Shown in pieces: positions 2,099 to 23,140 of a stretch of 23,140 nt of DNA. Source of the DNA: a virus (lineage: Duplodnaviria; Heunggongvirae; Uroviricota; Caudoviricetes); IMG/VR virus record IMGVR_UViG_2869924733_000002. One strand, given 5' to 3'. Positions within the stretch are counted from its first letter, which is position 1; each line of letters starts with the position of its first letter. A model generated the notes under the pieces. It worked only from the letters and a program-made list of their open reading frames with translations, was not told where the DNA came from and did not search any database. The translations under genes were made by a program, and so were the position numbers.

Positions 2099-2633
2099 TA
2101 GCCTGCAATCTGTCGTTGATGCGGCTCAGGTCGTAAACCCGGCGTTCAATATCCAGCATCAGGAAATTGTGGATCTCGGCCTGCTCAGGATTATCAGACT
2201 CTCTGGCCTGTAATAGCAATTCATTGTAACCATGCAAGCCGCCTGAGTTTTCCGCCGGGGTGGTGCCTTTCCCACGCAGGCAGCTAATGGGCTGATTACT
2301 CGTATCGTGTGTTTGCTTCTCCAGCACAATGACGCAATCCCACCAGTCGCCAAAGTCATACGTGTAAACCAGCTTGTCACCCTCATTCTGGAGCGCCGCC
2401 CATAGTGGCGTGATTGCCGCGTTACCCATGCTTTCATCCTCACCCCATACGCGATACTCGCTACCTGGATCACCTTTACGCCCTTTCTCGAACATATACA
2501 GGTGTTCGTCATTCCAGCCAAAAGCTAACTGGATCACGGCATGAAGTTTACTAAAGGGGATTTGCTCTGGAACCAGCACACGCCGCCATATAGGTGGTTT
2601 GCTGTCTCGGATGGTTATCTTTAGCTGGTACAT
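2091..2633 (-). CDS. Plasmid pRiA4b ORF-3 family protein (PF07929-like)
   Basis: The N-terminus MYQLKITIRDSKPPIWRRVLVP...FSKLHAVIQLAFGWNDEHLYMF is the signature of this family as I recall it. Confidence 0.8.
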   Translation of the reverse strand: MYQLKITIRDSKPPIWRRVLVPEQIPFSKLHAVIQLAFGWNDEHLYMFEKGRKGDPGSEYRVWGEDESMGNAAITPLWAALQNEGDKLVYTYDFGDWWDCVIVLEKQTHDTSNQPISCLRGKGTTPAENSGGLHGYNELLLQARESDNPEQAEIHNFLMLDIERRVYDLSRINDRLQAIN

Positions 2634-2753
2634 GCAAATCCTGAATAAATGCGAATCGGAAGGATAACGATACTGACGTACTCACAATTCTGTAAAGGTG
2701 AATAAAGGAAATTTGCTTAATACGCATAAGTTACATGTGGAATAATCCCATAT

Positions 2754-2939
2754 CTACCTGCGCGGCGCTGGCTTCTTCCACTGGTAGGCAGGTGCTCGCA
2801 TCATTTCGCGGAACCTGTCGCGCCGGGCTATATCGGCATTAACTGATCGTTCTATCTCCCGTTGATCTGCCTGTGTAAGCTGGTGGCCTCCGTGCTCAAG
2901 TTTGGCGATGGTCAATAAGGCTATTTCGCGTGGTGTCAT
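2754..2939 (-). CDS. Small conserved hypothetical protein (61 aa), paralogue of 3750-3941
   Basis: 20 of the first 21 residues match the paralogue (MTPREIxLLTIAKLEHGGHQL) and both share a C-terminal REMM..PAY.W.KPAP. The nucleotide differences in the conserved part are mostly synonymous. Confidence 0.65.
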   Translation of the reverse strand: MTPREIALLTIAKLEHGGHQLTQADQREIERSVNADIARRDRFREMMRAPAYQWKKPAPRR

Positions 2940-3165
2940 ACGTCATACCCTCTGGAAGGATGAAACACGCCCGGATTAAATTTCATTTTTCGCGGGTATA
3001 AAAAAACGATGGGGCGGGCAGTCCCGGATAGTCAGGGCTGTAGAGATTTGACTACCCCCTCCCCACTGGATTCAGGTTACTGCTATTCCGTTAAGCGCTG
3101 CTTACGGGGATAGCTGCGTTGTGATTTTGACCATTCAGGTCGCCGCTATTTCCTCACCGATTGGG

Positions 3166-3200
3166 TGCTACGCGCGCGCGTACTTGTCCCGAAATACCAG
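3166..3200 (+). repeat. CG-palindrome motif, copy 1 (tgctaCGCGCGCGCGTACTTGTCcCGAAATaccag)
   Basis: One of three same-orientation copies. Contains the 14-bp palindrome TACGCGCGCGCGTA. Confidence 0.8.
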
Positions 3201-3236
3201 AAACCGCCAGCCAGAGGATGATTTCCCTCTGGTGGT

Positions 3237-3518
3237 CTACCTTTGCCTCTTGCCGCCATTTAACCGGAAGGCGTTACCGTTCGGTTGCGCTATCCCCATG
3301 CGGTGTTGCGTTTCGGTAACAGCTTTATGCAGGTCGCCAAATTCCTCAACCTTCACGGGCGGGCGCTTCACGTTCTCCAGACACGTTTCACGGCGGCGCT
3401 TTATCCATTCCCGATCATCGTCCTCGGTGCATAACAGCATGACTTCCATCCATCGTGCGGCAGCTCTCCGGTATAGCCCTTTTGACTCCAGCTCTTCAGC
3501 TTTCCTGTCCCTTATCAT
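3237..3518 (-). CDS. PerC-family transcriptional activator
   Basis: AEELESKGLYRRAAARWMEVM...DDDREWIKRRRETC matches the PerC-family core as I recall it (GLxRRAAxRW...REWIxxRR..C). Confidence 0.75.
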   Translation of the reverse strand: MIRDRKAEELESKGLYRRAAARWMEVMLLCTEDDDREWIKRRRETCLENVKRPPVKVEEFGDLHKAVTETQHRMGIAQPNGNAFRLNGGKRQR

Positions 3519-3547
3519 TTCTGCCTCTCAGATTATATAGATAAGCA

Positions 3548-3678
3548 AAAAGGTGTTGGTTCAGTTGGTTCAGTTGGTTCAATTTGTAAAGAGTATTGTT
3601 TTTAAAAGAATTATTCGCAAAAAGTGAACCAACACACCCCATTTTTGAACCAACAAAAAGAGGCCGTGAACCAACACG
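3548..3678. repeat. Iteron/origin-like block L: 3 tandem GTTGGTTCA, an AT-rich spacer, then 3 inverted TGAACCAAC
   Basis: GTTGGTTCA x3 at about 3555-3581. (G/T)TGAACCAACA at 3624, 3646 and 3667, spaced 21-22 bp. An AT-rich stretch lies between the two sets. Confidence 0.8.
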
Positions 3679-3749
3679 CCGTTTAAAAACCGCTAATTAT
3701 GAGGGACATCCACCAGCACAGGGCTTGTCTAGTGCTGGTTAGGTGCTGC

Positions 3750-3941
3750 TCACCGCGCACGGAGCGGCGCTGGTTTGCTCCAGCGATATGCGGGGCTGGT
3801 CATCATTTCGCGGTACCGCCTGGCTATTACAGGGCCCTCTGCCAGCTGGCGCCTTAATTCCCGCAGTTCTGCCGGGCTGAGCTGGTGGCCGCCATGCTCC
3901 AGCTTGGCAATGGTCAGCAGCTCGATTTCTCGTGGTGTCAT
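3750..3941 (-). CDS. Small conserved hypothetical protein (63 aa), paralogue of 2754-2939
   Basis: Start chosen at MTPREIELL..., which has GAGGGG 5 nt upstream. Paralogy is described under 2754-2939. Confidence 0.65.
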   Translation of the reverse strand: MTPREIELLTIAKLEHGGHQLSPAELRELRRQLAEGPVIARRYREMMTSPAYRWSKPAPLRAR

Positions 3942-4086
3942 GGATTCCCCTCTGATGGTGATCGGCATTATATTGCTAGCCAGGGTGATTCTTCACTGGC
4001 CAGAGCCGTTGTGCGTGAAGTCTATGCGTGAACTCCATATGCTATGTGTTAAGTTACAGCTCAAAATGTCCTGTTCCGGTGGTAAC

Positions 4087-4143
4087 TTTTTGGTAAACAG
4101 CGTTTTGGTGGATACCAACATGGATACCTCGCTTTTGGATACC
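4087..4143 (+). promoter_or_regulatory. Direct-repeat array upstream of alpA (TTTTGG / TGGATACC motifs)
   Basis: GGATACC at 4110-4116, 4122-4128 and 4137-4143, and TTTTGGT at 4087 and 4103. The array lies in the divergent intergenic region between the 63-aa gene and alpA. Confidence 0.3.
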
Positions 4144-4192
4144 ACCCAAAGCCAGATTGTCACTATGCTTAATCTAAAGCAGAGGAGCCTCT

Positions 4193-4378
4193 ATGCGCCT
4201 TATCAAATTAAGCGAAGTCATGCTCAGAACGGGCTTCAAGAAAACGGCAATCTACTCATGGGTTAAGACGGGCACGTTTCCACAGCCAGTTAAAATTGGT
4301 AGATCAGCTAGATGGTCGCTTGAGGAGGTTGAAGCTTGGATCCAGAACAAACTTGATTCGCGGGCTGGCAACCAATGA
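4193..4378 (+). CDS. alpA: AlpA-family (prophage CP4-57-type) MerR-like DNA-binding regulator
   Basis: MRLIKLSEVMLRTGFKKTAIYSWVKTGTFPQPVKIGRSARWSLEEVEAWI is the AlpA/phage transcriptional regulator pattern. A GAGGAG RBS is present. Confidence 0.85.
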   Translation: MRLIKLSEVMLRTGFKKTAIYSWVKTGTFPQPVKIGRSARWSLEEVEAWIQNKLDSRAGNQ

Positions 4379-4910
4379 TTAGCTTTAATATCGAGTGGTG
4401 GATAGTCCATGGACAAGCTGATGGGCGCACTCGACGAAAACGATGCGCCAGGCGGACTGTGTCGCTCATAAACCGGGAGTTGGCCAGAGGACTTAGTTGT
4501 CCTTTGCAATTCTGCAGGTTCGCACGTGAAAGTAGCCAAAACCCTGCGAACCTGAGTGCAAACCTGCAACTGCGAACCACTGAGGTGGCCTCTCATAGCT
4601 GGTGGTCATACTGGATATTAATCAGGCCTGCCACAACCATAACAATCCATAACAGACGCATCGCACCAACAATTACTAATAGGTCCGCTCGCAACACTAA
4701 TTTTGACTAAGCCTGAACGCAATGCTCAGAAAGAACGAAGAATGGAATGAATCGTACCATCATGTTGCTCCATGATTTTTACGTTCAAGACAGTTGCTTA
4801 ATCTCGCCTCGCAATTCAGCCCCCTTGCCGTTATCGAGAAGTCTTTCTCCTTACGGTTAATGCTATCGGTCTTCATATTACCAGCAGCATACGCCATCCG
4901 ATTATTTCGA

Positions 4911-4943
4911 TGCTACGCGCGCGTACTTGTCGCAAAATACCAG
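4911..4943 (+). repeat. CG-palindrome motif, copy 2
   Basis: tgctaCGCGCGCGTACTTGTCgCaAAATaccag. It also shares ccgatt...tgcta in the left flank with copy 1. Confidence 0.8.
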
Positions 4944-5011
4944 GCAAAGGCCAGATTCAGAACGTCGTGATAACCACCAGTACAACATGAGAGGTCATGT
5001 AACGCGATTTA

Positions 5012-5383
5012 TCACACCAGATACATGTGATTGGTGTACCCGCATAAAACATCGTCATAGCGCGTCCTGTGCGCATATACGCCGATAATCAACACATCAC
5101 CACCACTCTGTCTCATGTAGAGAACAGTTTTATGGTATCCCCCCGCCATCGTGTGCATACTGGTCGGACGTAGTTGCAAAATTTTTTGCAACTGATACCC
5201 CTCGCGCGCGTACTTGTCTCGAAATTGGTGTTTTGCTGTGGCAGTGATATCAGAAAAATCTTCCTGTTTCACATAAAGCGGATATGCGCGTACTGTAACG
5301 GCCCCATCAACGGGGATCGGATTTGAAATCCCGACCCAAGCTATGTACCAAATGCCATGTCTTGGATATATGATGATTGCCAT
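5012..5383 (-). CDS. Doubtful hypothetical ORF
   Basis: The open frame has no RBS. It contains CG-motif copy 3 and a perfect 20-bp palindrome (5173-5192), so this DNA may be regulatory rather than coding. Confidence 0.25.
   Translation of the reverse strand: MAIIIYPRHGIWYIAWVGISNPIPVDGAVTVRAYPLYVKQEDFSDITATAKHQFRDKYAREGYQLQKILQLRPTSMHTMAGGYHKTVLYMRQSGGDVLIIGVYAHRTRYDDVLCGYTNHMYLV
5201..5225 (+). repeat. CG-palindrome motif, copy 3
   Basis: ctCGCGCGCGTACTTGTCtCGAAAT, in the same orientation as copies 1 and 2. Confidence 0.75.
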
Positions 5384-5411
5384 TCTAAACAAAGCTAAAG
5401 GGAGGGTTGGT

Positions 5412-5762
5412 GTGAATGCTCAGGCTGTCATCATGGTTTTCCTTGGTCTGATTGTCGCAAAACTATATCCAGACTGGTGGAAAGGGGCATTAGCAACTGT
5501 CGCCATCTATTTGCTTTTATCCGTCGTTAAGCGATCGTTCGTTAAGACCGTAAATCAAGCAAAACGTTTCTCATTTAAGAATTTAATAAACTATATTACT
5601 GGGCTTATTTTTTGCCTTTCAATTTTGATCGCCTCAGCTTTTTTGCCCGTATCAATAGCTAATTTTTTTGGCGCACCATATGAGGTAGGTTATCTATTCT
5701 CTGTTTTTTGTCTTGTTCTTTCCCTTCTTTACCTATGGATGAGAGCAAAGAACAAAAATTAG
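5412..5762 (+). CDS. Small polytopic membrane protein (about 116 aa from the GTG start), AT-rich moron-like gene
   Basis: AAAGGGAGGG lies 5 nt before the in-frame GTG at 5412. There are three to four hydrophobic segments. The gene is visibly AT-rich and converges on the gp16-like gene. Confidence 0.55.
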   Translation: MNAQAVIMVFLGLIVAKLYPDWWKGALATVAIYLLLSVVKRSFVKTVNQAKRFSFKNLINYITGLIFCLSILIASAFLPVSIANFFGAPYEVGYLFSVFCLVLSLLYLWMRAKNKN

Positions 5763-5780
5763 CCATCCATGGCTAACCAG

Positions 5781-7879
5781 TTATTGAGCTTCTTTTTGTG
5801 ATGCCTGTGCGACTCTGGTGAGCGATTGTGTGACCGTACTGATCGCTCTGTCATATGCTGTGCTACCTTTTGGCGTATTTGCCAGACGTAACAAGGCATT
5901 TCGTATAACAGGGCTTTCGTATGCCTTCGCTGCTCCGCCTACGGCACCAGCAGCAGGAACAACAAACGCAGCCGTTTTTAGCATCCCCGCTAATACTGCT
6001 GCGTTTATGATGCCACCACCAACTAACAATCCATAAAGCTGCTGACCATTTAAGTTTTGAACGTTCGCTTTTGCCGCGTGTCTTGTATCGTTGAGGTATT
6101 TAATAACGCCGTCCAGTTCCTTTCCATGTACGCCTTTAAAGAAAGTTGCTGATTGCTTCCTGTTCCGGTGTAACGCATTAATAAACTTCTCAACACTGAT
6201 ATTTCCAGACGGATCAGTCGCCTTATCTACAGCATTCTGAACTATGGCTGCTCGTGCGTTTTGCCTACCATTGTCATCCAGAAGCCTGTAAAGCTGAGAA
6301 CGTTCTGATGGGCTTTGGCTAAAAACGAGTTTTGTTACATCCTCAGGCGTGGCCTTGCCGCTGGCTATTGCCTTTTGAACGCGCGTTCTTCCCATCATGT
6401 CATTGAATTTAGACCATGAGCGATCAACCCTTGCCATATTAATGGCTTCGTCTGCTCCAAGATTTTTGGCTACGGCTTTTTTCATATCCGCCGTATATGC
6501 CTTGTAGATAATATCGCTGGCTTTCTGGAGCGTATCTTTATCAACAGTGTCAGATGACGCCATAAATCGCTTTCGAAGATCGGTTCTGTTTTCCCTCGCC
6601 AGACGCAGGTCATTTGGTCCGCTGGTGATATCGTCTTTAAATTGCTGCAAGACTTTTACCGCGGCTCTATCCTGAGATTTGCCCGGGCGGCTTAACACGG
6701 CAATCTGATTGTCGATAGCTTTTACCGTGTTTGAGAGATCGACAGGGGTATCCCCCATAGCGTCAATTATGCGGTTATATCGCTTTCCTGCTGCCTCAAT
6801 GAATTTTTGTTGCCCTTTAGTCGCAGATTCATAAAGCTGTTTATCAGAAATGCCACCCAGACCATCGCTAAATGTTCTGACTAAATTTTCTCGTGCTTGT
6901 TGTTGATTCAGCCGATTCTTACCGGTTCCAAAAAAAGGAACTCTTTCGCCTAATGTCTGAGCCTGACTCTGCATAAAGGTTTTATCTTTCAGCATGTCAC
7001 TGGTCATTAACGGCAGATTTCTTTCCGATGCAAAGTCGACAGCAGCCTTTGCTTCAGGCGACATATCACCACGAACAGCCCTCGAAACCGCACTCGCTGT
7101 ATTTTCCAGCCCCTTACCAATACCACCAATGCCAGCAGAAATTACCGTTTGTAACGGATCAATATCTTCTCCACCAGCAAGGCTGGTGGCTCCCTGTAGT
7201 GCTAAATCTGTAGCTGCTGATTTTCCTATAGCACCAAGCACCGTTCCAGCCCTGCCCACTGGTGTAAACGCCAACGCATTAGCAAGAAACGAAGTCAGGT
7301 CTTGCGGTGATAAACCCGGCTTGTTCAGGGCATAATCACCTGATGGCAGAGAAACGATAGTATTCCCCTTCTCATCCTGCCTTAATGTCGCCCCCATTCC
7401 CTGAAGAATCTTTTCCTGAGACGCGTCAGAGCCGAAAAGTTGAGACCATCCAGCCTTTAGGGCATCCATGCTTAGTGAGTTCAATTCTGGGGCAGAGGTG
7501 ACATTTTGCAGTCTCTCCATCTCTGGAGTCATTCGGCTTTCGCCTGTTATAGCATCGCGCATCGCAGCCCCAAGACTGGCTCCCTGTTCTGCTGAACGCT
7601 CAAGCCCCTCTCTTTGCTGAGTAGCTAACTTTGCATACCCTGACGCAAGAGAATTATCAGATGATGTATGTTGAATATTTTGAGTTGCTGATTGGGATCG
7701 GTCTATTTCATTCGTTGATGGTAGTGGATAGGCAGCATAAAAAGCCTGCTTAGCCTGCTCTACACTTTCTCCGGCTTGCGGGGCAACGACTTCATTGAAG
7801 TATTGCTCCTGAGCCTGCGCTTTTTGTTCTGGTGCTAACGCCTGATACTGTGGAGAGGCGATAACATCTTTCCATGCTT
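5781..7879 (-). pseudogene. P22 gp16-type DNA-transfer (ejection) protein; its first 7 nt (8798-8804) are separated by an IS
   Basis: Third and largest gene of the gp7/gp20/gp16-order cassette. Joining 8804..8798 to 7879..5781 gives a 701-codon frame beginning MAKAWKDVIASPQYQALAPEQKAQAQEQYF... The start overlaps the gp20-like stop (TAATG). Confidence 0.7.
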
Positions 7880-7881
7880 TA

Positions 7882-8797
7882 GGCTGTGTCCCTTAATCAT
7901 CTGAGCTATAGTAACTGTCTGTTTACACAACATATTGAACTATGGCTCGCTACGACCTTCCCGATGAGGCATGGACCATCATCAAGCCCCTGTTACCTCC
8001 TGAACCCGCCACACCACGGGCCGGACGCCCATGGGCTGAGCACCGTAAAATCATCAATGGCATGTTCTGGGTGTTATGTTCCGGTGCACCATGGCGCGAT
8101 TTACCCGAACGATATGGGTCATGGAAAACTGTTTATAACCGCTTTAACCGATGGTCAAAGTCAGGCGTGATTAATATTATTTTCAACAGGTTGCTTTCGC
8201 TACTTGATGCAAACGGCTTTATTGACTGGTCTGCCACCGCGCTGGATGGCAGTAATATCCGGGCGCTGAAATGTGCCGCCGGTGCTCAAAAAAACATCCC
8301 GATATCGACGGAGATAATGGGCCGGGTCGCTCTCGCGGCGGTTTTGGCACCAAAATCCATCTGGCAACAGACGGAAGTGGCCTCCCGTTAAATATCGTGC
8401 TAAGCCCCGGACAAGCTCATGAAAGCCAGTTCGCGCAACGACTTCTGGACGGGATTGGCGTTCAGCGTCAGAACGGCAGCATGAAACGCCGTGGACATGC
8501 GGTACTGGCTGATAAAGCGTATTCAGGGCGCGCATTGCGCAACGAGCTGAAAAATAACGGTATAAAGGCAGTAATCCCCCGAAAGTCAAATGAGAAAATG
8601 GCATCGGATGGACGTGCACAGCTTGATCGTGATGCGTACTGCAATCGTAATGTCGTTGAACGGTGCTTTGGGCGGCTGAAAGAATATCGCCGCATCGCCA
8701 CGCGTTACGACAAAACGGCGAGAAATTACCTGGCGATGGTGAAACTGGGCTGCATCCGACTCTTTTATCAACGCTTACGTAATTAAGGGACACAGCC
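7882..8797 (+). mobile_element. IS5-family (IS427-group-like) insertion sequence, 916 bp
   Basis: Perfect terminal inverted repeats GGCTGTGTCCCTTAAT (7882-7897 and 8782-8797). TA duplication at 7880-7881 and 8798-8799. Confidence 0.9.
7942..8786 (+). CDS. IS5-family DDE transposase made from two frames by a -1 frameshift at an A7 run
   Basis: OrfA (7942-8391) and OrfB (8271-8786) overlap. A7 lies at 8288-8294. A -1 slip gives ...GAQKKHPDIDGDNGPGRSRGGFGTKIHLATDG... Confidence 0.85.
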
Positions 8798-8803
8798 TAG
8801 CCA

Positions 8804-9887
8804 TTAATCACCCCATAGTGAAGAAAAGTTACTGCTGGCTGCTGGCTGTGATACCTGCTCAGATTGCGGCAATGTCTGCGACGAAGAAGAAGTTCCTCTG
8901 TCAACTGCTGAAATAACCCGCAAAGCATCATAAGCTCGACCAGAAGCAGCTTTCAGCGAATTGAACTGGTTTTCCATCTTCCGGCGCTTGGTATCAATGG
9001 TTTTTGTGGAGTCGCCAGGCTGAGGGAAATACATTTGATAATATTTTGACATTTCAGCAGGTGCGATAGCTGCCCCTGTTTCCTGACGGAGTATTGCCAT
9101 TATTGCGTCATTAGCATTAACAACGTATTGCTGCTCTGTTGGGCTGAGCGTTAAGTTAGCCAGCGTCCCATTACCCAAAGCATTATTAATGATCGCCACT
9201 CGCTGTGGGCTAAGCTGGTCTTTCAGTGTATCTATTGAATCAAGAGCATCCCTAACCCTGTATGCAAATCCAGCAGCTTTTTTAGCCCCTTCTGGCGACT
9301 TTTCCATGATCTTTTGGGCTGTTGGCAAAGCTATTGGACGAAACCCATCTCCAGATATTGGCTGGTTTAGTTTTCCCTGCTCTTCACTTCCGTCTGTGTA
9401 GTATTTTGTGACAGTGCCATCATCGTTTTCTCTAACACTCATTAATTTTTTGGCGTTTGTATTAATTCCAGCCGCTGCCGCAAATGCCGCCGCCCCCTCT
9501 GGATCCGCCTTTAACATTTGAGCGTACTGATTGTAATTCTGCATTGCTGCTGTTGGTGCATATGCTGACGTTAACGCATTTGCTCGGCTAATATCCTGCC
9601 CTCTCGCCTGAAGTGCTTCGCCAGCCTGATTGCTGCGGATTGTCTCTGCCAACTTGCCACGCTCAATATCCCGACCTTCCATTTGATCTTTGATATCGAA
9701 ATACTTCTCATGACCGAGAGAAAACAGTGCCATACTACCAGCAAGCCGCTGGAATCCCTGTGGATCATTAACATGCATTTCGGCAACAGACTCAGGAGAA
9801 ATTCCCAAGCGACGCATTTCATCTTCGTTATCTGCTATGAATTTTCCAAATGCCCCAGTTCCGAGCGAAGATGCGATTTGAGCACTA
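8804..9887 (-). pseudogene. P22 gp20-type DNA-transfer protein, 3' portion (split by IS630)
   Basis: Continues in frame from 11041-11380 once IS630 and one TA are removed (...HLATSAQIASSLGTGAFGKF...). The restored gene is 473 aa. I recall P22 gp20 as about 471 aa. Confidence 0.7.
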
Positions 9888-11040
9888 AATAGCTGCGCTT
9901 AATACCGCTACACTTTTGCCAGTCCATGTTTGCCTCCGGGGAATGGGCTGACGGTTTCCATAAAATGGCGAACTTTTTTCAACAGTTGCCACATTGAGCG
10001 GCACTGATGATTACGCGTTATTGTGTCGTGAAGTGCCTGCCATAGCCGTTCAACATGATTCACCCATGGCGAGTAAACCGGCTGATAAATGACCCTGAAC
10101 TTCGGGTTCTCCTTCAGCCAGCTCTGTGTTTCCCGGCTTTTGTGGATAATGTAGTTGTCCACGATCAGCGTGATGGTTTTCGCCCGACGGTATGTCGCTT
10201 TAAGCCGCTTCAGCAGGCTGATGAACAGCGCCGAACTTTTGCTGTTGCCGCCCACATAGCTGACTTTACCTGTCCCGCTGTGCAGCGCTCCGGCCAGATA
10301 ATATTTTTCATTCTGTCCCGGCGTGACCACCCGTTTTTGCTGTCCGCGCAGTTGCCAGTCCGCACCGATTTTGGGATGAAGATGGATATCCACTTCATCT
10401 TCATAAAAGACCGGATGCTCTGCGCTGCATTCGTCCAGTGCTTTATGGATTGCTGCCATCTTTTCATCTTTATGCGGGTCACGGATACGCAGAGTTGGCG
10501 CAGCCCTTCGCCACACAATCCCCGCAGACGGCAACCAGCGGCGAACGGTTCCGGCATTTAACTGGCAACCGGTTATCTCATTGATTTTTATTGCCAGCAG
10601 TTCTGTACTCCAGCGTGAACGCTGGTAGCCAAAGTCGCCGGGAGAATGTTTTACCAGCTCACGTAACAGTGTGCAGATATGCTCAAACGGCCAGCGACGG
10701 GCACGCCCGGCAGGTAATGATTTCAGTCCCTCAACACCCGACTGCGTGAACCAGTTAATCCAGCGTCCAACAGAGGAACGGGCGCAGCAGAGCGTTCTGG
10801 CAACGTCGCTGACACGGTCGCCCCGGTGCAGCATCAGCATGGCAGTCAGTCTGCGGGCATAATTTTTATCGTGTGTTTTATGGATGGCTTTCTGCATCAG
10901 GCGTCGTTCGTCACGGGAAATTGGTGCTATGATCGGCATTGCTCAGTCCGGTTGGTGATTTGTTTTGATTTGGCGATTGATCAGATCGCACAATCCGGGC
11001 TAAGTTCCCTCAAAATGATCTACTATTCCGCGCAGCTATT
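9888..11040 (-). mobile_element. IS630, 1153 bp
   Basis: Imperfect terminal IRs beginning AATAGCTGCGC at both ends. TA duplication at 9886-9887 and 11041-11042, which restores a CTAG target. The 1153-bp length matches my recollection of IS630. Confidence 0.9.
9908..10939 (-). CDS. IS630 transposase (343 aa)
   Basis: Full-length ORF MPIIAPISRDERRLMQKAIHKTHDKNYARRL... recognised as the IS630 (Tc1/mariner-like DDE) transposase. Confidence 0.95.
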   Translation of the reverse strand: MPIIAPISRDERRLMQKAIHKTHDKNYARRLTAMLMLHRGDRVSDVARTLCCARSSVGRWINWFTQSGVEGLKSLPAGRARRWPFEHICTLLRELVKHSPGDFGYQRSRWSTELLAIKINEITGCQLNAGTVRRWLPSAGIVWRRAAPTLRIRDPHKDEKMAAIHKALDECSAEHPVFYEDEVDIHLHPKIGADWQLRGQQKRVVTPGQNEKYYLAGALHSGTGKVSYVGGNSKSSALFISLLKRLKATYRRAKTITLIVDNYIIHKSRETQSWLKENPKFRVIYQPVYSPWVNHVERLWQALHDTITRNHQCRSMWQLLKKVRHFMETVSPFPGGKHGLAKV

Positions 11041-11380
11041 TAGTCGCAAGATGACCAATAGAATTTCTCTGGTCGTCATCAATAAAGCCCATCCCTTTCT
11101 GAACGCTTTCAAATTCTTCTGGATACTCAGAAATAAGACTGCGCATTTTGTTTCTGTCTCCAGACTCAAAAGCCCCGGCATATGCTTTCTGAAACTCTGC
11201 TTTACGCTGTTGTTGACGTGCCTGCTGATTAATCTCAGCAACGCCTCTTAGCCCCTGTAGCGCCATTAAACCTACGTTTGGGTGCTGCTGATACTGCACA
11301 GGCTGAGGAACGGAAGAACGAGGAGCATTATCATTTTGCGGTGCCATGCTAGGCAGCCCGCCAAGTTGCCATGTCGCCAT
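11041..11380 (-). pseudogene. P22 gp20-type DNA-transfer protein, 5' portion
   Basis: The start overlaps the gp7-like stop (TAATG). The apparent stop at 11036-11038 lies inside the IS630 end. Confidence 0.7.
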
Positions 11381-12057
11381 TAGAATCCAAGCCCCCCAAC
11401 AAGACCAATAAGCCCACCACCAATAGCCCCGGCGACATTACCTATACCCGGAACAACGGAACCAAGTTGCGCACCCGCTAAAGCGCCTGATGCCGCCCCA
11501 CCAATACCACGCGCAAGACTGGATGGCTGCTGCGCCTGACCTGCACGAATAGCGCCAAGCCCCTGCAAGAGTTGCCCGGTATTATTGGCGTAGTTTTGCC
11601 CTGCTGTTGCCTGCCCTGATGCCGCATTCATCCCGACATTTAGCAGGTTTCCATAATTTTGCATTTGCCCACTGAGCCAATTGTTATAAAGCATGGGCGC
11701 AATGGAAGATAACTGGTTACTGGTAGCTGTTGAGCCAAGCCCCCCGGTAGCTTCTGCTGAGACAAGGTTCTGATAACGGGCCTGATCTGCCTGTGTTTTA
11801 TATAAACCAGAACCAAAGAAATCATTCGCGGCTTTATTCTGCCCTTCCAGAGTCATCAGTCCTTGCAGTTGTTGTAAAGCAGGCAATCCGACTTCTGCAT
11901 ACGGCTTGAGATTATTCATCACCGTATTCCACTGCTCGCGCTGCAAATCAATTGCCTGCTGCTGGGCCTTCGCCTGAGCTTTAGAGGCACCACCATCACC
12001 GCCTTTTTCGTATACGGCACGATTGAGATGTTTATGAGCTATATGGGTAATTAACAT
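11380..12057 (-). CDS. P22 gp7-type DNA-transfer (ejection) protein, 225 aa
   Basis: Size and position match gp7 (about 229 aa as recalled). It has a Gln/Asn-rich body and a Gly-rich hydrophobic tail, and is translationally coupled on both sides. Confidence 0.7.
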   Translation of the reverse strand: MLITHIAHKHLNRAVYEKGGDGGASKAQAKAQQQAIDLQREQWNTVMNNLKPYAEVGLPALQQLQGLMTLEGQNKAANDFFGSGLYKTQADQARYQNLVSAEATGGLGSTATSNQLSSIAPMLYNNWLSGQMQNYGNLLNVGMNAASGQATAGQNYANNTGQLLQGLGAIRAGQAQQPSSLARGIGGAASGALAGAQLGSVVPGIGNVAGAIGGGLIGLVGGLGF

Positions 12058-12512
12058 TCGCTGAATTCCTTATATTGTTGCCGAGTTAACTGATAAAGCG
12101 TTACGCCGACGGGTTTACCACATCTGATATAAGCATCATCAAGGTGACCAACACGGGTAGCGCCAAGCAAACGGATAATTGCCCGTCCATATTTCGTGGT
12201 GTCAGGAACCATAGTGATGCTGTTAAGGAATGGTGAGTTTTCGAGAAGCCATTTGCAGAATAATCGATGCCCTTGCAGTGCATATTCACCACGGAATCCG
12301 GGGTCGTACACCGCATGGCATTCAACAACGCTATGCCAGAAGTTACGCACTTCATGAACGCCAGCCAGCACTAATCCTTCGTAGATGCCGAGATATACCG
12401 CATCAGGCTTGATGTAGTACGTGTGCCCCGGCTCAACAATATTTTCGGTATTGCCTGGCTCGTTAAGAAAGGCCTGTAATCGCACAGGGTTATCAATAAA
12501 TTTTAGTTCCAT
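12051..12512 (-). CDS. gp14-position protein (DUF2824/GNAT-fold-like), 153 aa
   Basis: Sits directly upstream of the gp7-like gene, as gene 14 does in P22-like phages. YDPGFRGEYALQGHRLFCKWLL resembles a degenerate GNAT motif A. The family name is from memory. Confidence 0.55.
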   Translation of the reverse strand: MELKFIDNPVRLQAFLNEPGNTENIVEPGHTYYIKPDAVYLGIYEGLVLAGVHEVRNFWHSVVECHAVYDPGFRGEYALQGHRLFCKWLLENSPFLNSITMVPDTTKYGRAIIRLLGATRVGHLDDAYIRCGKPVGVTLYQLTRQQYKEFSEC

Positions 12513-13086: not shown

Positions 13087-13136
13087 AACACTCTCTGATG
13101 CCAGCCAGGTGTTGTGCGCATCAATTCAGTCACATT

Positions 13137-13256
13137 GTGTTGGTTCAAAATACCGTGTTGTTGGTTCAGTGTTGGTTCAATAAAAAGAATAAAATCCTTA
13201 TAAAACAATACCATTTACAAATTGAACCAACTGAACCAACTGAACCAACACCTTTT
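13137..13256. repeat. Iteron/origin-like block R, immediately 3' of the primase-helicase gene
   Basis: TGAACCAAC x3 in tandem at 13223-13249, an AT-rich spacer, then three GTTGGTTCA-type repeats at 13137-13180. This is the mirror image of block L. Confidence 0.8.
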
Positions 13257-13274: not shown

Positions 13275-16034
13275 TCATTCTTCAGATGAGTTATAATCTC
13301 CTGGCTGGTAATTGAGTACATAAACGTTTATTTGTCGTCCCTGAATACGTGGTGATTTTCTTTGGTATCCACGACCGCTGTTTGGTGGGGTTAGCATCCC
13401 GGCTTTTTTCAACACTTCAGCAAACTGTTTTGCGTTGAAACCACATGCGATCTCCTTTTCAAATGTGGCCGGGAATGTGTAGAAAATCATTGGGCTTTCG
13501 TCATGTTCTCCACGCTGACGGTATCCGGCTAAATCTTTGATGGGCAAATCTGCCGGGCTGTATGGAAATGGTGCAAAACGGCTAAGCCCATAGGCATTAA
13601 GAAATGCCTCCGTTTGTTCAATAATCTGCTGATGTTCTTTGTTACCTGTGCCGAACTCGCGCAACCATGCGTTATAGCTGTGCTGTATCGCATCACGGCA
13701 TGTCTGAGCATCCCAGCCTGTTACAACCTCGCCTAACAGCAATGCGGCCTCCAGAATGGCAAATCGCGCGGCTACACGGTGAACCTGCTCACCATAATCG
13801 GATGGGATCAGGTTTCTCCATCTGCTTTCGCAATCACGAACGGTTTTAATAGCCTGTTGCTGGTGGTCTGCCAGCCATTTAATCCACTCACGCCCGGCTG
13901 CGCCGTGGTGATGCTGGTAAGCGTCTTTCAGTGCGTCTGCGTGCTGTTTTCCGTTCTGGTAATCGTGAAAGCGTACTGCTTTACTCAACGGAATATTCAG
14001 CAGTCGCACCAGTTGCCCGGCTTTGGTTTTTCGCCCGGAAGTAGCGATAAATGTTTCTAAATCCATTTCTCCGGTGCTGATTGCCACTGTACGCCAGCGT
14101 TTTAGATCCCGGTTTCCACCATCTTTAGCGCCTTGCAGTTTCCCTACACCGTTAAATAACGCATAGGCAGACTGTGAAACGCTGACAGGATCAGCGCCCT
14201 GACCAACTTCATCAAGCGGCATTAGTCCGTCATTGTGGGCGGCGGCCTCATTTGCCAGCCCCAGCGCGGTTCCGTACCACGTCAGCCGCAGTAAATCAGG
14301 GTTGCCGTATAAGCTGCTCGCCACGTTTGCCGTGGTGGTCTTACCTGCGCTCGACTGCTCATAGAAATGAATGCCGAACCCGTCAGCGCCCACCAGCCCA
14401 ATCAATGGCGCTGCCAGTGCTGCGCCGATCCCGGTCATCATTGAATAGTTACCAAAGGCCAGACGCGCCACGTTATCACGCCAGCTTTTCGCGCTCCCTG
14501 AGACGGTATATCCGGCTGCGGCTGAGCTTCTCCCGCTGAACAGCACAGGATTTTCAGGTGTTCCGATGATTTCCCCATCAGGCATGATGTACGCTCCGCA
14601 TTGCCAGCCAGTGGCATGAGCAACACGCCACAATTCACGAGAGCCACTGCGTTGTAGCCAGTCTGCCAGTATTGCTCTGAGGCTGCTTTTGGTCGTGACA
14701 TTTACCCCACCAGCTTTAAGTGTGCGCCATCCTTCACGTTCACCAATATCAGCCAGTGGAATGGCAGCGGTTGTCGGCGTTTCAGAACCAAACGACAGCC
14801 AGCGAAGAATGAGATACTGGTCTTTATCGTCTCTGCCAGTACCGATAACGCTTAACGGAGAACATAACCAGCTTTCGTTATTGATGATTTCTCCACTCTG
14901 GCTGTCAGCTCTCGGAGATACCCAATAAATACCATCCTCGCGGCTTTCTATTCTTGGTTTCAGTGGGTCGGTATCCATAACCTTAAAATCGCTTCCCTCA
15001 ATGGTCTGTGGCTCCTGTTTCACGCCATTACCCTGTGGTTGGTACATTGACTTATTGAACGCTTCTGTGGCGCATTTAATGCCGTGTTTTTGGTGGTAAT
15101 CATTCCAGTCTGCTTTGTGATCTGTCGGGGGTAATGCCACCCATCCAGAAACAGATAAAGCTGCTTTTTCTGCTGCTATTCTCCCCGTGTTTTGTCTTCC
15201 TTCGCTGTGGTCGTTATCCGCAGCAATGATGATTTGTGCTGAAGGAAATTTATCCCGCAGTACCTGGGCGACATATAACAGGTTCCCGGCATCAATCGCC
15301 GCCACTGTCAGCGCCTCTGGACGAATTAAATGGGCAGATAATGCCGTTGCCAGCCCTTCTGCGATTAAGATGCTCTGTGTTGTTTCTGGCGCGTTTATGG
15401 CGTGATATGCCCCCCGCTTTGCTGAACCTGTCAGGAGTCTTTTTTCACCATGTGATGTAATAGTCTGTGCTGCTGTGACTGCGCCGGATTTATCCACCAG
15501 CGCCAGCAACAGAGATCCATCGGGCAACACGGGGAATGTAAAATCACCTACCCCTTTCGCAACCAGATAATCAGATTTGCCGTTTACAGCCTTTCTGCGC
15601 ATGTCATCAAACTGACGGGAAAACGTATCCCGTCTTTGTTGTTCGTCCTTCTCTGCCCTTTTCAGGCGCTCCTGTTCGCGTCGCTGGCGCTCGGTTTCCA
15701 GTTGTTCCCGTTTCTGGCTGGTGGCTTCTGGTGTTTCCGTTGTCCGGTAATCAATACCCAGAACATCAGCGGCAAGAAGCGCCGCCTCTGTTGTGTCGCA
15801 GTTATTTACGCGTTTAATTAAATCCAGCCCATCACCAGCGCCGCACTGATTACAGATGAAGCTACCGCGCCCGTTGTCATCGAACCGGAATCGATCTTTG
15901 CCCCCACATGCAGGGCAGGGAGCATGACGGCGCGGAGAGTCAGGGACATTTATGTTCAGGCAGCCCAGCACATGAGGCCAGTTGTTTTCAGACGCACTGA
16001 TAACCTGACGGATAAGATCAATGTTTCGCATCAC
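13275..16034 (-). CDS. P4 alpha-like primase-helicase (zinc ribbon + TOPRIM + DUF927/SF3-type P-loop), 919 aa
   Basis: CPACGGKDRFRFDD...FICNQCGAGDGLDLI zinc ribbon, a TOPRIM-like ILIAEGLATA...IIAADND, and Walker A in YEQSSAGKTTTANV. The start is GTG 16034 or ATG 16031. Confidence 0.9.
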   Translation of the reverse strand: MMRNIDLIRQVISASENNWPHVLGCLNINVPDSPRRHAPCPACGGKDRFRFDDNGRGSFICNQCGAGDGLDLIKRVNNCDTTEAALLAADVLGIDYRTTETPEATSQKREQLETERQRREQERLKRAEKDEQQRRDTFSRQFDDMRRKAVNGKSDYLVAKGVGDFTFPVLPDGSLLLALVDKSGAVTAAQTITSHGEKRLLTGSAKRGAYHAINAPETTQSILIAEGLATALSAHLIRPEALTVAAIDAGNLLYVAQVLRDKFPSAQIIIAADNDHSEGRQNTGRIAAEKAALSVSGWVALPPTDHKADWNDYHQKHGIKCATEAFNKSMYQPQGNGVKQEPQTIEGSDFKVMDTDPLKPRIESREDGIYWVSPRADSQSGEIINNESWLCSPLSVIGTGRDDKDQYLILRWLSFGSETPTTAAIPLADIGEREGWRTLKAGGVNVTTKSSLRAILADWLQRSGSRELWRVAHATGWQCGAYIMPDGEIIGTPENPVLFSGRSSAAAGYTVSGSAKSWRDNVARLAFGNYSMMTGIGAALAAPLIGLVGADGFGIHFYEQSSAGKTTTANVASSLYGNPDLLRLTWYGTALGLANEAAAHNDGLMPLDEVGQGADPVSVSQSAYALFNGVGKLQGAKDGGNRDLKRWRTVAISTGEMDLETFIATSGRKTKAGQLVRLLNIPLSKAVRFHDYQNGKQHADALKDAYQHHHGAAGREWIKWLADHQQQAIKTVRDCESRWRNLIPSDYGEQVHRVAARFAILEAALLLGEVVTGWDAQTCRDAIQHSYNAWLREFGTGNKEHQQIIEQTEAFLNAYGLSRFAPFPYSPADLPIKDLAGYRQRGEHDESPMIFYTFPATFEKEIACGFNAKQFAEVLKKAGMLTPPNSGRGYQRKSPRIQGRQINVYVLNYQPGDYNSSEE

Positions 16035-17810: not shown

Positions 17811-18001
17811 TTTTCACCCCCAAGAATTACCAGCTCGGCACGGGCATCGTTAACCAAAGATGAGCACGCTTTAATCGCATCCACGACATCAGTAGCGTCC
17901 ATTTCTTCAGCCGAAAGACTGACAGCAACCAGGACAGCCGCTGCTTGCTCGATTAATTGAAGTGCGGACGTAAGGCGAGGGGTATTAATTGAGTTATTCA
18001 T
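17807..18001 (-). CDS. Small hypothetical protein, 64 aa (start at MNNSINT)
   Basis: The ATG overlaps the upstream stop (CCAATGAATAA). Confidence 0.5.
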   Translation of the reverse strand: MNNSINTPRLTSALQLIEQAAAVLVAVSLSAEEMDATDVVDAIKACSSLVNDARAELVILGGEK

Positions 18002-18212
18002 TGGTTGCCCCCGTTTTTCCTGGCATTTCGCCACCTTCCAGCAGGAAATGAACGTCACGAACGGCGAGATCCAATATCGCGAGTAACGCCTTCAGTCTTT
18101 CGTCTCGTGAGGGAGAGTTGCTCACCAGAATGTCGTTAATCACTTCTGTCAGTGTGATGATCTGGCTTGTGCGTTCGAGGGGATCCATATGCACATCGTA
18201 GGTTTTAATCAT
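17994..18212 (-). CDS. Small hypothetical protein, 72 aa (start at MIKTYDV)
   Basis: The ATG overlaps the Icd-like stop (ACATGATTAA) and follows GGAGGTGG. It occupies the same frame as the 355-codon ORF. Confidence 0.5.
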   Translation of the reverse strand: MIKTYDVHMDPLERTSQIITLTEVINDILVSNSPSRDERLKALLAILDLAVRDVHFLLEGGEMPGKTGATNE

Positions 18213-19061
18213 GTGCCACCTCCATGCGGATACGACCAGCAAAAAAGCAGATGTGATCGCGCACCAGAGAACGGCGAGCATCGCGTTCAGACTCGGCAGC
18301 AATATGATGAATTTTGGCGGTAATTGTCGGGCAATCGCGGCGAACTGCGGCGATAATCCAGATAAATTGCGGTTTTTGGGTAGTGGTAGTAGCCAGCATG
18401 TGGCAGCCTCCTTGTACTGGGAGTTCTTCCCACCACCGGAGCTGCGAAACTCGCTGGTGGTGGACTGAACAGAGTTCGCAGTACCGGCGTACAAGGAAAC
18501 CGGCCAGCCTTTCGGCTGCCCTGTCCAGCCCACCATAATTTTGCAAGCGACGCGGATTATAACCGCATCACTGAAAAAAGTGTGAGTCTGGCTAACGGCA
18601 CAAAAAAAGACGCTCGGCGCGTCATGTGTCGCCTCGTACATTTCCGGGCTGCGAAACCCGGCACCCGTTTTATGAGGTGCCTTATAACCATAAACCGTGT
18701 TGCCGCATAACGGCAAGCTCTTTTTTATGGACTCCGAAAACTCACTATTGGAAGCACCAGATGCACAATACATCGCGCTCATTTCGTTAACGTCGCGCGT
18801 GTGGACGAAGGTTTTTGTGGAGTCACTACGCGAGCAGAGAAAGCCATCTACGACCAGAAATTCTCTGGCGCAGCCGCCGACCTTCTCAACGCTAACACCA
18901 TCGACCGTAATTTCTGACATAGTTAAGGCATCCGCTCCCACCACCAGAAAATGATAAACTTTGCTTGTATCTGCTGTATTAATGCCAGACTTTGCTGTCA
19001 TATTGCTGGATTTTGGCGACATACCAGCCAGTGAAAATATCTTCTTCTGGACGGTTAGCAT
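17994..19061 (-). CDS. 355-codon open frame, probably composite; only the 5' part (about 18546-19061) is likely to be an independent gene
   Basis: The start is strongly coupled (GGAGGTTAACAAATG overlapping the upstream stop). The frame then runs through the Ash/RNA region, across the Icd-like gene in another frame, and into the 72-aa gene. Confidence 0.35.
18205..18399 (-). CDS. Host cell division inhibitor Icd-like protein, 64 aa
   Basis: [21 protein letters not shown]...[10 protein letters not shown]...FFAGRI matches the P4 Icd-like pattern from memory. AAGGAGG lies 7 nt upstream. Confidence 0.65.
   Translation of the reverse strand: MLATTTTQKPQFIWIIAAVRRDCPTITAKIHHIAAESERDARRSLVRDHICFFAGRIRMEVAHD
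18400..18545 (-). ncRNA. Candidate P4 CI / P1 C4-type immunity RNA region (the stretch usually annotated as 'Ash family protein')
   Basis: Translates as [34 protein letters not shown] (Ash-like). It holds a GNRA hairpin (CAGCC-GAAA-GGCTG) and a CCACCACC/GGTGGTGG stem. The position upstream of icd matches P4. Confidence 0.3.
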
Positions 19062-19237
19062 TTGTTAACCTCCGCGAACTCCTTCATGAAGCGCGCCAGC
19101 GGTTGTACGCATGGCGATTGATACCCGTCGCGATAAAACGTCACTCGGTTGTGAGACACGCTTTCGACAGTAACGAGTGCTCCGTGGGCATCCTTGTAGC
19201 GTTTTTGAGGTTGTGGTGTTCCTGTCGGCTTAAACAT
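19055..19237 (-). CDS. DUF4222-like small protein, 60 aa (start at MFKPTG)
   Basis: GGAGGTGG RBS. The ATG overlaps the upstream stop by 8 nt. The motif ...HGALVTVESVSHNRVTFYRDGY..CVQPL..F..EF is recalled as DUF4222. Confidence 0.55.
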   Translation of the reverse strand: MFKPTGTPQPQKRYKDAHGALVTVESVSHNRVTFYRDGYQSPCVQPLARFMKEFAEVNKC

Positions 19238-21783: not shown

Positions 21784-21925
21784 ACGCCACCCCGCGCCCC
21801 TAATTCTGACGGCTATGCCAGCCCGTAGGGGTGTACGGGTTTTCGGGGATCAGCCTAGACATAGCCTATTCTTTGTTCGTCTACATAAGTCTACTACCAT
21901 TGCTTAACACGGTCTATTCATACAG

Positions 21926-23140
21926 TTAAGCTCGTTTCCCAAACGAACCATGAACAACGTTCTCCTCCTTCTCCAGCGCATCCATATAGTCGGCATACCA
22001 TTGAAGCATCTCCCGCCTTCCATCCAGATATTGCGCATGGTTGTATGTGCCACGAATTGAGTTCTTATCAACGTGAGCGAGCTGCGTTTCTATCCACGCG
22101 GTGTTATAGCCCTGCTCATGCAAAATCGTGCTCATAGTGTGCCGGAACCCATGACCAGTTACACGTCCAGCGTAGCCAATGCGCTTAAACACTTGGTTTA
22201 TGCTGGCCTCACTCATTGTTTTCCTTGGATCATTGCGCCCGGGAAACATAAGAGGGTAATTGCCTGTTATTTCTCTAATCTTCCCAATAAGCGAAAGAGC
22301 CTGATCAGACAATGGCACAATATGAGGCCGCCGCATTTTCATACGTGAAGCGGGTATCTCCCAGATAGCCTTGTTGAAATCAATTTCATCCCATAATGCG
22401 CCACGTAGTTCGCCAGTCCGCAAGCCGGTGATAATCAGTAGACGAGCCGCCATAACAACCAATGCGCTTCCTGAGTAACTGGACAATGCCTTGAAAAAAT
22501 CAGGTAATTCTTTAGCTGTAAGGAAAGGGTAATGATTAGATTCATGGCCTTGCATCGCGCTAGTAAGGTCTGGTGCAGGGTTATACTCTGCGCGACCAGT
22601 GACTATTGCATAGCGGAAAACTTCCCCGCACCGCTGCCTCACTTTTTTGGCTTTTTCTGTAGCACCGCGCCCCTCGATGCGCCGCAGCACATTCAGAAGT
22701 TCAAGTGGTTTGATTTCGGCGATTGGTTTTTTGCCAATGTAAGGGAACACATCTTTGTTGAAGGCTTCGAGGATGTCTGAAGCATAACCAGCAGACCATT
22801 TTTTTAATTTGCTGCTGTGCCACTCAAGGGCAATATCTTTGAAGGTGTTGTTTAACTGCGTTTCCCGGGCAATCTTTTCCTCTCGTTTCGCTTCCATCGG
22901 ATCGATACCACCAGCGATACCTCTTTTCGCATCTTCACGTTTTGCCCGAGCATCGGCTAGAGTAACCTCAGGATACACACCTAGTGCCAATAGCTTCTCT
23001 TTACCAGCTACACGATATTTAAGTCGCCAGTATTTACCTCCATTAGGTTTTACCAAGAGATACAAACCGCCACCATCGGCCAGCTTGTAAGCCTTCTCTT
23101 TTGGCTTGGCTGTGTCTATTTGACGGGCATTGAGTTTCAC
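21926..23140 (-). CDS. int: P4-type tyrosine integrase (DUF4102 N-terminal domain); start at or beyond the window edge
   Basis: N-terminal ...AKPKEKAYKLADGGGLYLLVKPNGGKYWRLKYRVAGKEKLLALGVYPEVTLADAR. C-terminal HGFRHTMSTILHEQGYN..WIETQLAH..........Y catalytic region. Confidence 0.9.
   Translation of the reverse strand: MKLNARQIDTAKPKEKAYKLADGGGLYLLVKPNGGKYWRLKYRVAGKEKLLALGVYPEVTLADARAKREDAKRGIAGGIDPMEAKREEKIARETQLNNTFKDIALEWHSSKLKKWSAGYASDILEAFNKDVFPYIGKKPIAEIKPLELLNVLRRIEGRGATEKAKKVRQRCGEVFRYAIVTGRAEYNPAPDLTSAMQGHESNHYPFLTAKELPDFFKALSSYSGSALVVMAARLLIITGLRTGELRGALWDEIDFNKAIWEIPASRMKMRRPHIVPLSDQALSLIGKIREITGNYPLMFPGRNDPRKTMSEASINQVFKRIGYAGRVTGHGFRHTMSTILHEQGYNTAWIETQLAHVDKNSIRGTYNHAQYLDGRREMLQWYADYMDALEKEENVVHGSFGKRA

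Follow-up and report, generated by a model that had tools for sequence, protein, structure and literature searches.

A short CG-rich motif recurs in a stretch of 23,140 nucleotides (nt) from a tailed phage record (Caudoviricetes; IMG/VR IMGVR_UViG_2869924733_000002), here called the window, which represents the thrW-proximal island region of E. coli and adjoins paoD and a LysR pseudogene. An earlier sequence-only reading had regarded the motif as a palindrome with a Z-DNA-prone core that might serve as a regulator-binding or recombination site. Our analyses instead give good support to an origin of the motif in terS, the small-terminase gene of Sf6/HK620-type P22-like phages (Pfam PF20901), whose sequence it matches over the codons F-R-D-K-Y-A-R-A(-R) and whose codons from about 47 to 64 it represents at the DNA level. 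The feature is real and its meaning most likely ordinary, in that the copies are gene fragments at prophage mosaic joints and owe their palindromic CG look to codons.

The window was scanned on both strands with the pattern CGCGCGCGTACTTGTCNCGAAAT, and 100 dinucleotide-preserving shuffles served as background. The motif GCGCGCGTACTTGTCNCRAAAT has three matches, all on the + strand, at 3173-3195 and 5203-5225 without mismatches and at 4916-4938 with one, where none is expected. None of the 100 shuffles gave any match, and a repeat search of the window joins the three copies into one family (D2) of 28 nt, so that the three + strand copies first noticed are real. There is no minus-strand copy at three or fewer mismatches within the window. 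Inside the window the string CGCGCGCG is confined to the motif copies, and it has no occurrence in about 20 kb of flanking chromosomal backbone, a small sample with which the earlier description of the CG core as uncommon is consistent. The gene order of L047, a Logan contig that carries primase, truncated gp20, c3, c3', c2, Abi_2, PerC and a diverged c1-like copy on one strand, identifies the minus strand as the sense strand, on which the motif reads ATTTCGNGACAAGTACGCGCGCG. The copies and the palindrome beside them are as follows.

3170..3218, minus strand: c1 (copy 1), probable terS-derived fragment, sense TCCTCTGGCTGGC-N11-TTTCGGGACAAGTACGCGCGCGCGT
4911..4955, minus strand: c2 (copy 2), sense CTGGTATTTTGCGACAAGTACGCGCGCGTAGCA, within a 28-codon open reading frame (ORF), MLYWWLSRRSESGLCLVFCDKYARVASK*
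5203..5237, minus strand: c3 (copy 3), sense GCAAAACACCAATTTCGAGACAAGTACGCGCGCG, reading AKHQFRDKYAR
5146..5167, minus strand: c3', a degenerate fourth copy, new here, sense GACCAGTATGCACACGATGG
5173-5192: perfect 20-bp palindrome, GTTGCAAAATTTTTTGCAAC, between c3 and c3' and 10 nt from the CG run of c3

All three main copies have the minus-strand frame F(R/C)DKYAR in common, with translations LVFRDKYARA* (c1, which lies 19 nt 3' of the perC stop codon and in the perC frame), LVFCDKYARVASK* (c2) and HQFRDKYAREG (c3). It is thus misleading to regard the motif as conserved only at the DNA level, as had been done when c3', the sense of the minus strand and the shared frame were missed. The local alignment of c1 and c2 covers about 47 nt with three small indels and scores 50, against a shuffle maximum of 33. 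Homology of c3 to c1 and to the other copies is limited to the 23-nt core. The CG run is (CG)5 in c1 and (CG)4 in c2, a difference of one unit, and all copies have a single orientation relative to their neighbouring genes. The palindrome reported beside copy 3 is present, and since c3' is a direct repeat of c3 located 53 nt sense-downstream of it, this palindrome is flanked by two direct repeats.

The relationship to terS emerged from a degenerate coding-string scan of IMG/VR, for which our figures refer to the matches listed, about half of them chance or unrelated codings of RD(Q/K)YAR such as that in a P2 gpA-like replication protein. Also among the matches listed are many Sf6-type terS genes, which carry the motif in the frame EFRDQYARAREAQA (...TVFRWLxxxxEFRDQYARAREAQAD...), show third-position variation in this frame across phages of 43-65% GC, and are assigned to PF20901 (E=1e-36 to 1e-43) and phrog_1482. 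For example, the E. coli P22-like phage HK620 has a terS of this type with TTTCGCGACAAGTACGCG, which agrees with 18 of 18 bases of the motif, and its TerS protein reads AKHEDFRDKYAK where c3 codes AKHQFRDKYAR. In c1 the similarity includes a second block, TCCTCTGGCTGGC, that matches terS TCCGCTGGCTGGC (FRWLA) at 12 of 13 positions (p=0.0045 against shuffles), with roughly the expected distance between the two blocks, 11 nt in c1 and 13 nt in terS. Low-GC terS alleles read TTCGTGACAAGTACGCGCGCGC, agreeing with c1 at 22 of 23 positions. Moreover, terS alleles that encode YARAR read TACGCGCGCGCGCGT and match the (CG)5 tract of c1 except that c1 is one CG unit shorter. The supposed Z-DNA tract is therefore a series of Ala-Arg-Ala-Arg codons, the (CG)4-5 run corresponding to GCG CGC GCG CG(T). 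In every copy the similarity to terS ends within or directly after the CG run.

The region was also translated into 471 six-frame fragments and compared with a hidden Markov model (HMM) built from nine TerS proteins. Seven of the top eight matches are motif frames, all at HMM positions 44-61, with E-values of 0.08-0.5 that are marginal. The alignment of c2 starts at WWL, opposite the RWL of TerS, and WWL lies outside the original search pattern.

Where the motif falls within terS is informative. Among 55 distinct terS alleles from HK620-like prophages (loci L161-L240), nucleotide diversity is 0.07-0.15 over codons 1-56 and only 0.006-0.03 from codons 57-60 (FRDKYA) onward; the alleles vary as far as TTT(CGC/AGA) and show no differences from GACAAGTACGCG on. 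The half encoding the DNA-binding domain falls into three or more diverged groups of alleles (AKHED, SEH(D/E)E and AAHED) on a near-identical remainder. This collapse of diversity at the motif codons places the motif on the joint where an exchangeable DNA-binding module meets the conserved part of the gene. Horizontal exchange of the terS segment for the DNA-binding domain is attributed to Leavitt et al. 2013 in a passage of PMC4669245. The copies in the window share this joint position with Sf6/HK620-type terS, but they are not intact terS genes: they are stumps of 23-50 nt that lack a start codon, a helix-turn-helix (HTH) and an oligomerisation domain and lie in non-terS contexts. The sequence-only reading had named the remnant 3' end of a decayed multi-copy gene as an outcome that would tell against it. 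A decayed-gene remnant is essentially what we find, except that the remnant is an internal segment of terS and not a 3' end.

The copies are set among genes that, from about 1.7 kb to 23.1 kb, lie nearly all on the minus strand. The principal features are these.

21926-23140, minus strand: integrase
21798-21865, minus strand: int-alpA RNA (RF02996, 46.7 bits), directly 3' of the integrase gene
13275-16034, minus strand: Toprim/DUF927 primase
5781..12512, minus strand: decayed P22-like late-operon fragment (gp14/DUF2824, gp7, gp20/Inj_translocase, gp16-like)
5012..5383, minus strand: ORF123 (WP_001444474 in some RefSeq genomes), spanning c3 and c3'
4193-4710, plus strand: alpA-orf111, pointing toward c2 and c3
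3237..3518, minus strand: perC, immediately sense-upstream of c1

The minus-strand island block also includes AntA/B and DUF4222 genes. In the part around c1 the order is the 63-aa gene, perC, c1, the 61-aa paralogue and a pRiA4b-ORF3 gene, and c3, c3' and c2 lie directly sense-downstream of the P22-like block in an unannotated stretch. Thus c1 is 3' of perC, c2 is 3' of ORF123 and c3 is inside ORF123. ORF123 has no Pfam or PHROG match, and its 41 relatives, all in E. coli or Salmonella, include many that are frameshifted, with the motif in other frames. We therefore reject ORF123 as a real gene that carries the motif.

The distribution of the motif is narrow. When 185,579 species, each represented by a single genome, were scanned for the exact motif, five matches were obtained, all in unrelated metagenome-assembled genomes and about the number expected by chance, and none of the enterobacterial species representatives has the motif. 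Among 5426 complete E. coli genomes, c1 occurs once per genome in 253, with no dispersed chromosomal copies, and 329 carry the c2-c3 block with a coverage of at least 80%. With near-chance matches across species and a single copy per genome in those 253, a host-wide repeat of the REP/BIME/ERIC kind, the other outcome that the sequence-only reading had held against itself, can be rejected. The terminal repeat of an insertion sequence (IS) or a miniature inverted-repeat element (MITE) was likewise rejected, the motif having no inverted partner at three or fewer mismatches and the flanks of the copies being unrelated.

In IMG/VR the exact motif is found at 19 loci, which represent the three contexts of the window and a fourth with unrelated flanks on both sides. 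This fourth context is that of four P4-like elements (L011, L084, L131 and L149), in which the copy lies about 150 nt upstream of isrK/C4 in the same orientation. Copies of this type (L011:143-165) continue from the CG run into G(G/A)GTAAGCGTTCGGAAAC, which is like the IS66-family terminal repeat GTAAGCGTAAACTGAC with a 4-nt insertion. The repeat GTAAGCGTAAACTGAC is seen in L005 and L046, and no IS is present at the L011-type copies; the link of the flank GTAAGCGT..AAACTGAC to IS66 was rejected as mere resemblance to the inverted repeat, probably due to chance. The origin of the c2-c3 block is illuminated by the metagenomic record IMGVR 3300045988_004969, which carries an HK620-type terS (99%), portal, scaffold, coat, gp10, an Sf6-type needle, gp14, gp7, gp20 and gp16, with c3 and c2 following gp16 at 0.55-0.86 kb in the same orientation. 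The block therefore belongs to the accessory DNA with which a P22-like late operon ends; it has no match among 50,697 sequenced phages.

The contexts of the copies vary independently of perC. At loci whose PerC is 51-54% identical, c2 and c3 are kept and c1 is absent, and at a locus with a 77% identical PerC the 285-nt c1 segment is replaced by a 1.3-kb segment with a 203-aa gene and the motif is missing. There is no similarity by which c1 could be a remnant of this 203-aa gene (L040).

We next consider how the copies are changing. In an alignment of ten loci, which is of shallow depth, the sense-upstream flank of c3 is invariant, and the motif itself varies (an N position, AAG/CAG, and C to T in c2). 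Copy c3' is eroding through CG to TG/CA changes, and GTGCGCG variants occur in c1. At this depth there is no sign of special purifying selection on the motif core. Rearrangement endpoints lie beside the copies: the low-coordinate flank of c2 changes between genomes at breakpoints 4907, 4871 and 4851, and in L047 gp20 is joined 6 nt upstream of c3. A metagenomic locus, L241, has a single c3/c3' hybrid copy and is missing the 53-nt interval, which is the product that unequal exchange between c3 and c3' would be expected to yield. The IS66-family element that directly adjoins c3' in L005 is a plain insertion. These breakpoints are compatible with the action of short direct repeats and a slippage-prone CG tract, and they are also compatible with selection to keep a copy. 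The suggestion of element-specific recombination sites stands insofar as the repeat is specific to the element, and the clustering of breakpoints beside the copies is compatible with a link to recombination.

(CG)n tracts prone to Z-DNA are said, from work by Freund, Bichara and Fuchs in 1989, to be hot spots of deletion and slippage in E. coli. The one-unit CG difference between copies, the ending of homology at the CG run and the clustered rearrangement endpoints resemble such hot spots. The tract here differs in being short and derived from Ala-Arg codons, and any Z-DNA formation or fragility is only putative.

On balance we lean towards the view that the copies are non-coding terS relics at rearrangement joints, that is, ordinary recombination scars. 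According to this scenario, a terS gene would have been broken at or next to its (CG)n tract by illegitimate recombination, and the stump would have entered both the accessory DNA that lies 3' of gene 16 in a P22-like prophage and P4-like island DNA nearby. Local duplication would then have given rise to c1 and c2 and to c3 and c3', with the stumps now decaying and non-coding. Their sole present activity would be as substrates for deletion (c3 with c3') and slippage, with other rearrangements ending beside them. Both this order of events and the lack of a present sequence-specific function are inferred. The decayed setting supports such a view, because gp20 and gp16 are split by ISs and the ORF123 family is frameshifted. 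If correct, it removes a false lead, since the apparent Z-DNA palindrome would be terminase codons for Ala-Arg-Ala-Arg left as prophage stumps, and it implies that the terS module joint of P22-like phages leaves traces outside terS.

Several observations weigh against this conclusion. The HMM test is partly circular, as the TerS proteins were found by means of the motif pattern, and homology past the core is significant for c1 only. In addition, all copies have one orientation relative to neighbouring genes and have CGCG after TACGCG, and the full 22-nt motif is in no sequenced terS. Furthermore, the same small part of terS has persisted in four or more different settings: 3' of perC, 3' of gene 16, some 150 nt ahead of isrK/C4, and as a diverged copy 3' of perC in L047. 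The remainder of terS is absent from all of them, and independent deletions end just short of the motif (6 nt upstream of it in L047). Such a pattern of survival would not be predicted by simple neutral decay and would be predicted by selection for the segment.

The main rival view concerns packaging. It is possible, although in our judgement unlikely, that the copies are pac-like decoys, terS segments that would be recognised by the small terminase of Sf6/HK620-type phages. A helper phage of this type would then package and transduce the island or satellite DNA, with the single orientation of the copies setting the direction of packaging. The pac site of P22-like phages lies inside terS (PMC8022706), the P22 site being a 22-bp asymmetric sequence within gene 3/terS (PMC9611059, PMC8022706), and Sf6 TerS recognises a specific pac site (PMC7672466). 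By homology and orientation only, the copies have what such a site would have, namely terS-coding DNA that is short, asymmetric and in a single orientation, and of P22-like phage type. They differ from the P22 site in that P22 TerS belongs to another family with an unrelated pac sequence, and in that the copies lie outside terS, where a packaging role is only putative. The pac site of Sf6 reportedly falls within the DNA-binding-domain portion of terS, as described by Leavitt and colleagues in 2013.

Several observations favour this alternative. The same terS segment recurs in a number of contexts that are not homologous, and its orientation relative to local genes is always the same; its distance of about 150 nt from isrK/C4 is constant in the four P4-like elements, in whose examined regions no packaging genes were seen; deletions leave at least one copy; the island adjoins P22-like virion genes; and one island-carrying genome also has a prophage with an HK620-type terS. 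Other observations tell against it. Most of the motif core, GACAAGTACGCGCGCG, falls on the conserved side of the joint, which counts weakly against a decoy, as pac reportedly moves together with the DNA-binding module; terS alleles of E. coli have GCGAAGG and not GCGCGCG after TAC; and conservation of the core does not exceed that of its flanks, with c3' decaying.

Satellites and islands that carry a packaging site of their helper are known, for example P4 with the cos site of P2, and EcCICFT073 and SaPIbov5 with cos. If the copies were decoys, they would likewise allow an element without a terminase to borrow the recognition site of its helper, although the known cases use cos and have demonstrated packaging and the present one would be of a putative pac type. 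We know of no pac-type mimic built from a terS fragment. Were the copies to act in this way, they would be the pac-phage counterpart of satellites bearing a helper cos site and would explain how headful (pac) phages package terminase-less islands of E. coli and Salmonella. Packaging and transduction by a resident or infecting P22-like phage would start at these sites and take in island DNA, and possibly the chromosome next to it, and the sites would also give a lead to the pac sequence used by terminases of the Sf6/HK620 type.

We give much less credence to an action on a helper phage through RNA or peptide, in which a rightward transcript of the alpA operon through c2 and c3 would pair with helper terS mRNA as an antisense, or in which short peptides would mimic helices 3-4 of TerS. 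The geometry is suitable, since alpA-orf111 on the plus strand faces c2 and c3, whose plus strand is antisense to terS, and for the peptide version the 28-codon ORF of c2 starts with ATG and keeps WWL...DKYAR in frame, while the changes in the diverged L047 copy (R to H, D to E, K to Q) are conservative. Yet an Rfam scan of 2500-6000 gave no match at E<=1 and one of the whole window gave none at the motif, folding of both strands of four copies gave z-scores from -2.3 to +2.1 with no common or stable structure and only a weak hairpin (GUAUUU-N6-AAGUAC), and scans for promoters and terminators found nothing near any copy. Most differences between loci in the c2 ORF are non-synonymous (about 5 to 2), a start codon is lacking in c1 and in copies of the L011 type, and orf111 is separated from c2 by an IS110 end fragment.

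The least credible of the alternatives is the one first proposed, that the copies are operators or recognition sites for PerC, AlpA or the 61/63-aa proteins, acting through the CG palindrome or through the dyad GTACTT-N6-AAATAC. A short imperfect dyad is present in c1, c2 and the L011-type copy, c1 adjoins perC, and the perfect palindrome lies beside c3; but the copies are 3' of or inside ORFs with no promoter-like site near, the dyad is broken in c3, and terS coding accounts for the sequence. Nor does the motif track with PerC or AlpA: c2 and c3 follow P22-like gene 16 and are found beside very different PerC alleles, the 77% and 51-54% identical PerC relatives are without c1, the first of them without any motif, and the L011-type copy has unrelated flanks with no regulator gene identified adjacent to it in the DNA examined. 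We therefore consider a PerC/AlpA operator very unlikely, the copies not being in promoter regions and not co-occurring with a regulator. The sequence-only reading is thus partly supported, its repeat being retained and its regulatory interpretation abandoned in favour of the relic view.

Two further identities were tried for the motif. A target of P1/P4-type immunity was rejected because neither in L011 nor in the window do the C4 loops show complementarity to the motif. An origin in DUF4222, which was prompted by the chimeric relative P0029, received no support from hhalign (0.4%), hmmsearch (E>5) or local DNA alignment (p=0.02-0.96).

Some minor features were seen around the copies themselves. 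The A/T centre of the palindrome varies between loci (window, L005, L027, L029, L041), reading AAAAAATTTT, AAAATTTTTT or AAAAAGTTTT, of which AAAAAATTTT is the reverse complement of AAAATTTTTT, and one 1-nt deletion and one A to G variant also occur; a small inversion or simple mutation may account for this variation. Part of the c1 flank has a 25-nt inverted match (88%) within the primase gene (15713-15737), which stops short of the motif. About 25 nt sense-downstream of c1, GCGGCGACCT (3137-3146, minus strand) agrees with the lambda cohesive end at 10 of its 12 bases, and this is probably a coincidence, as about 0.04 such matches are expected per window.

Mobile DNA has left other marks on this region. 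Two ISs interrupt the P22-like ejection genes (7880-8799 and 9908-10939). An IS5-family element (DUF4096 and DDE_Tnp_1 ORFs, with 27-nt inverted repeats) splits gp16, and a DDE_3/HTH transposase of 343 aa splits gp20, the C-terminal part of which (Inj_translocase) is at 8804-9817. A plus-strand stretch of about 80 nt at 4720-4800 corresponds, at 94-97% identity, to the 3' end of a transposase gene of the IS110 family together with the right end of the element. This end, from a family of RNA-guided transposases, is found in about 2,400 E. coli genomes and is isolated in the window between orf111 and c2. At 1174-1229 on the plus strand, in the LysR-remnant region beside paoD, there is a 28-nt tandem duplication in perfect register (96% identical).

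Repeats of other kinds were also noted. Iteron-like arrays of GGTTCA/TGAACC at 3548-3680 and 13135-13256 could be an origin or an operator, and a 65-nt stretch upstream of perC is repeated in inverted orientation, at 91% identity, just 3' of the primase gene. The 61-aa (2754-2939) and 63-aa (3750-3941) genes, both on the minus strand, are paralogues exactly 1002 nt apart with differing neighbours. Their DNA is 72-77% identical over 54 and 83 nt, and they have a weak match to phrog_7271.

Finally, in the whole window the only C4 and isrK matches in Rfam are at 18453-18680 (18453-18540 and 18603-18680), inside a minus-strand ORF of 355 aa annotated as an ash family protein (17994-19061), with scores of 81 bits for the C4 antisense RNA and 69 bits for isrK. 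In L011 the Pfam Phage_ASH match spans the same RNAs, and the 'Ash' protein family, judged from these overlaps, may largely be the translation of an RNA immunity locus. Upstream of isrK, the DUF4222 gene (19055-19237) has relatives (P0029, P0053, P0077, P0084 and P0096) that are chimeras, with an N-terminus in common followed from varying points by unrelated sequence, and this small gene is a frequent recombination joint.

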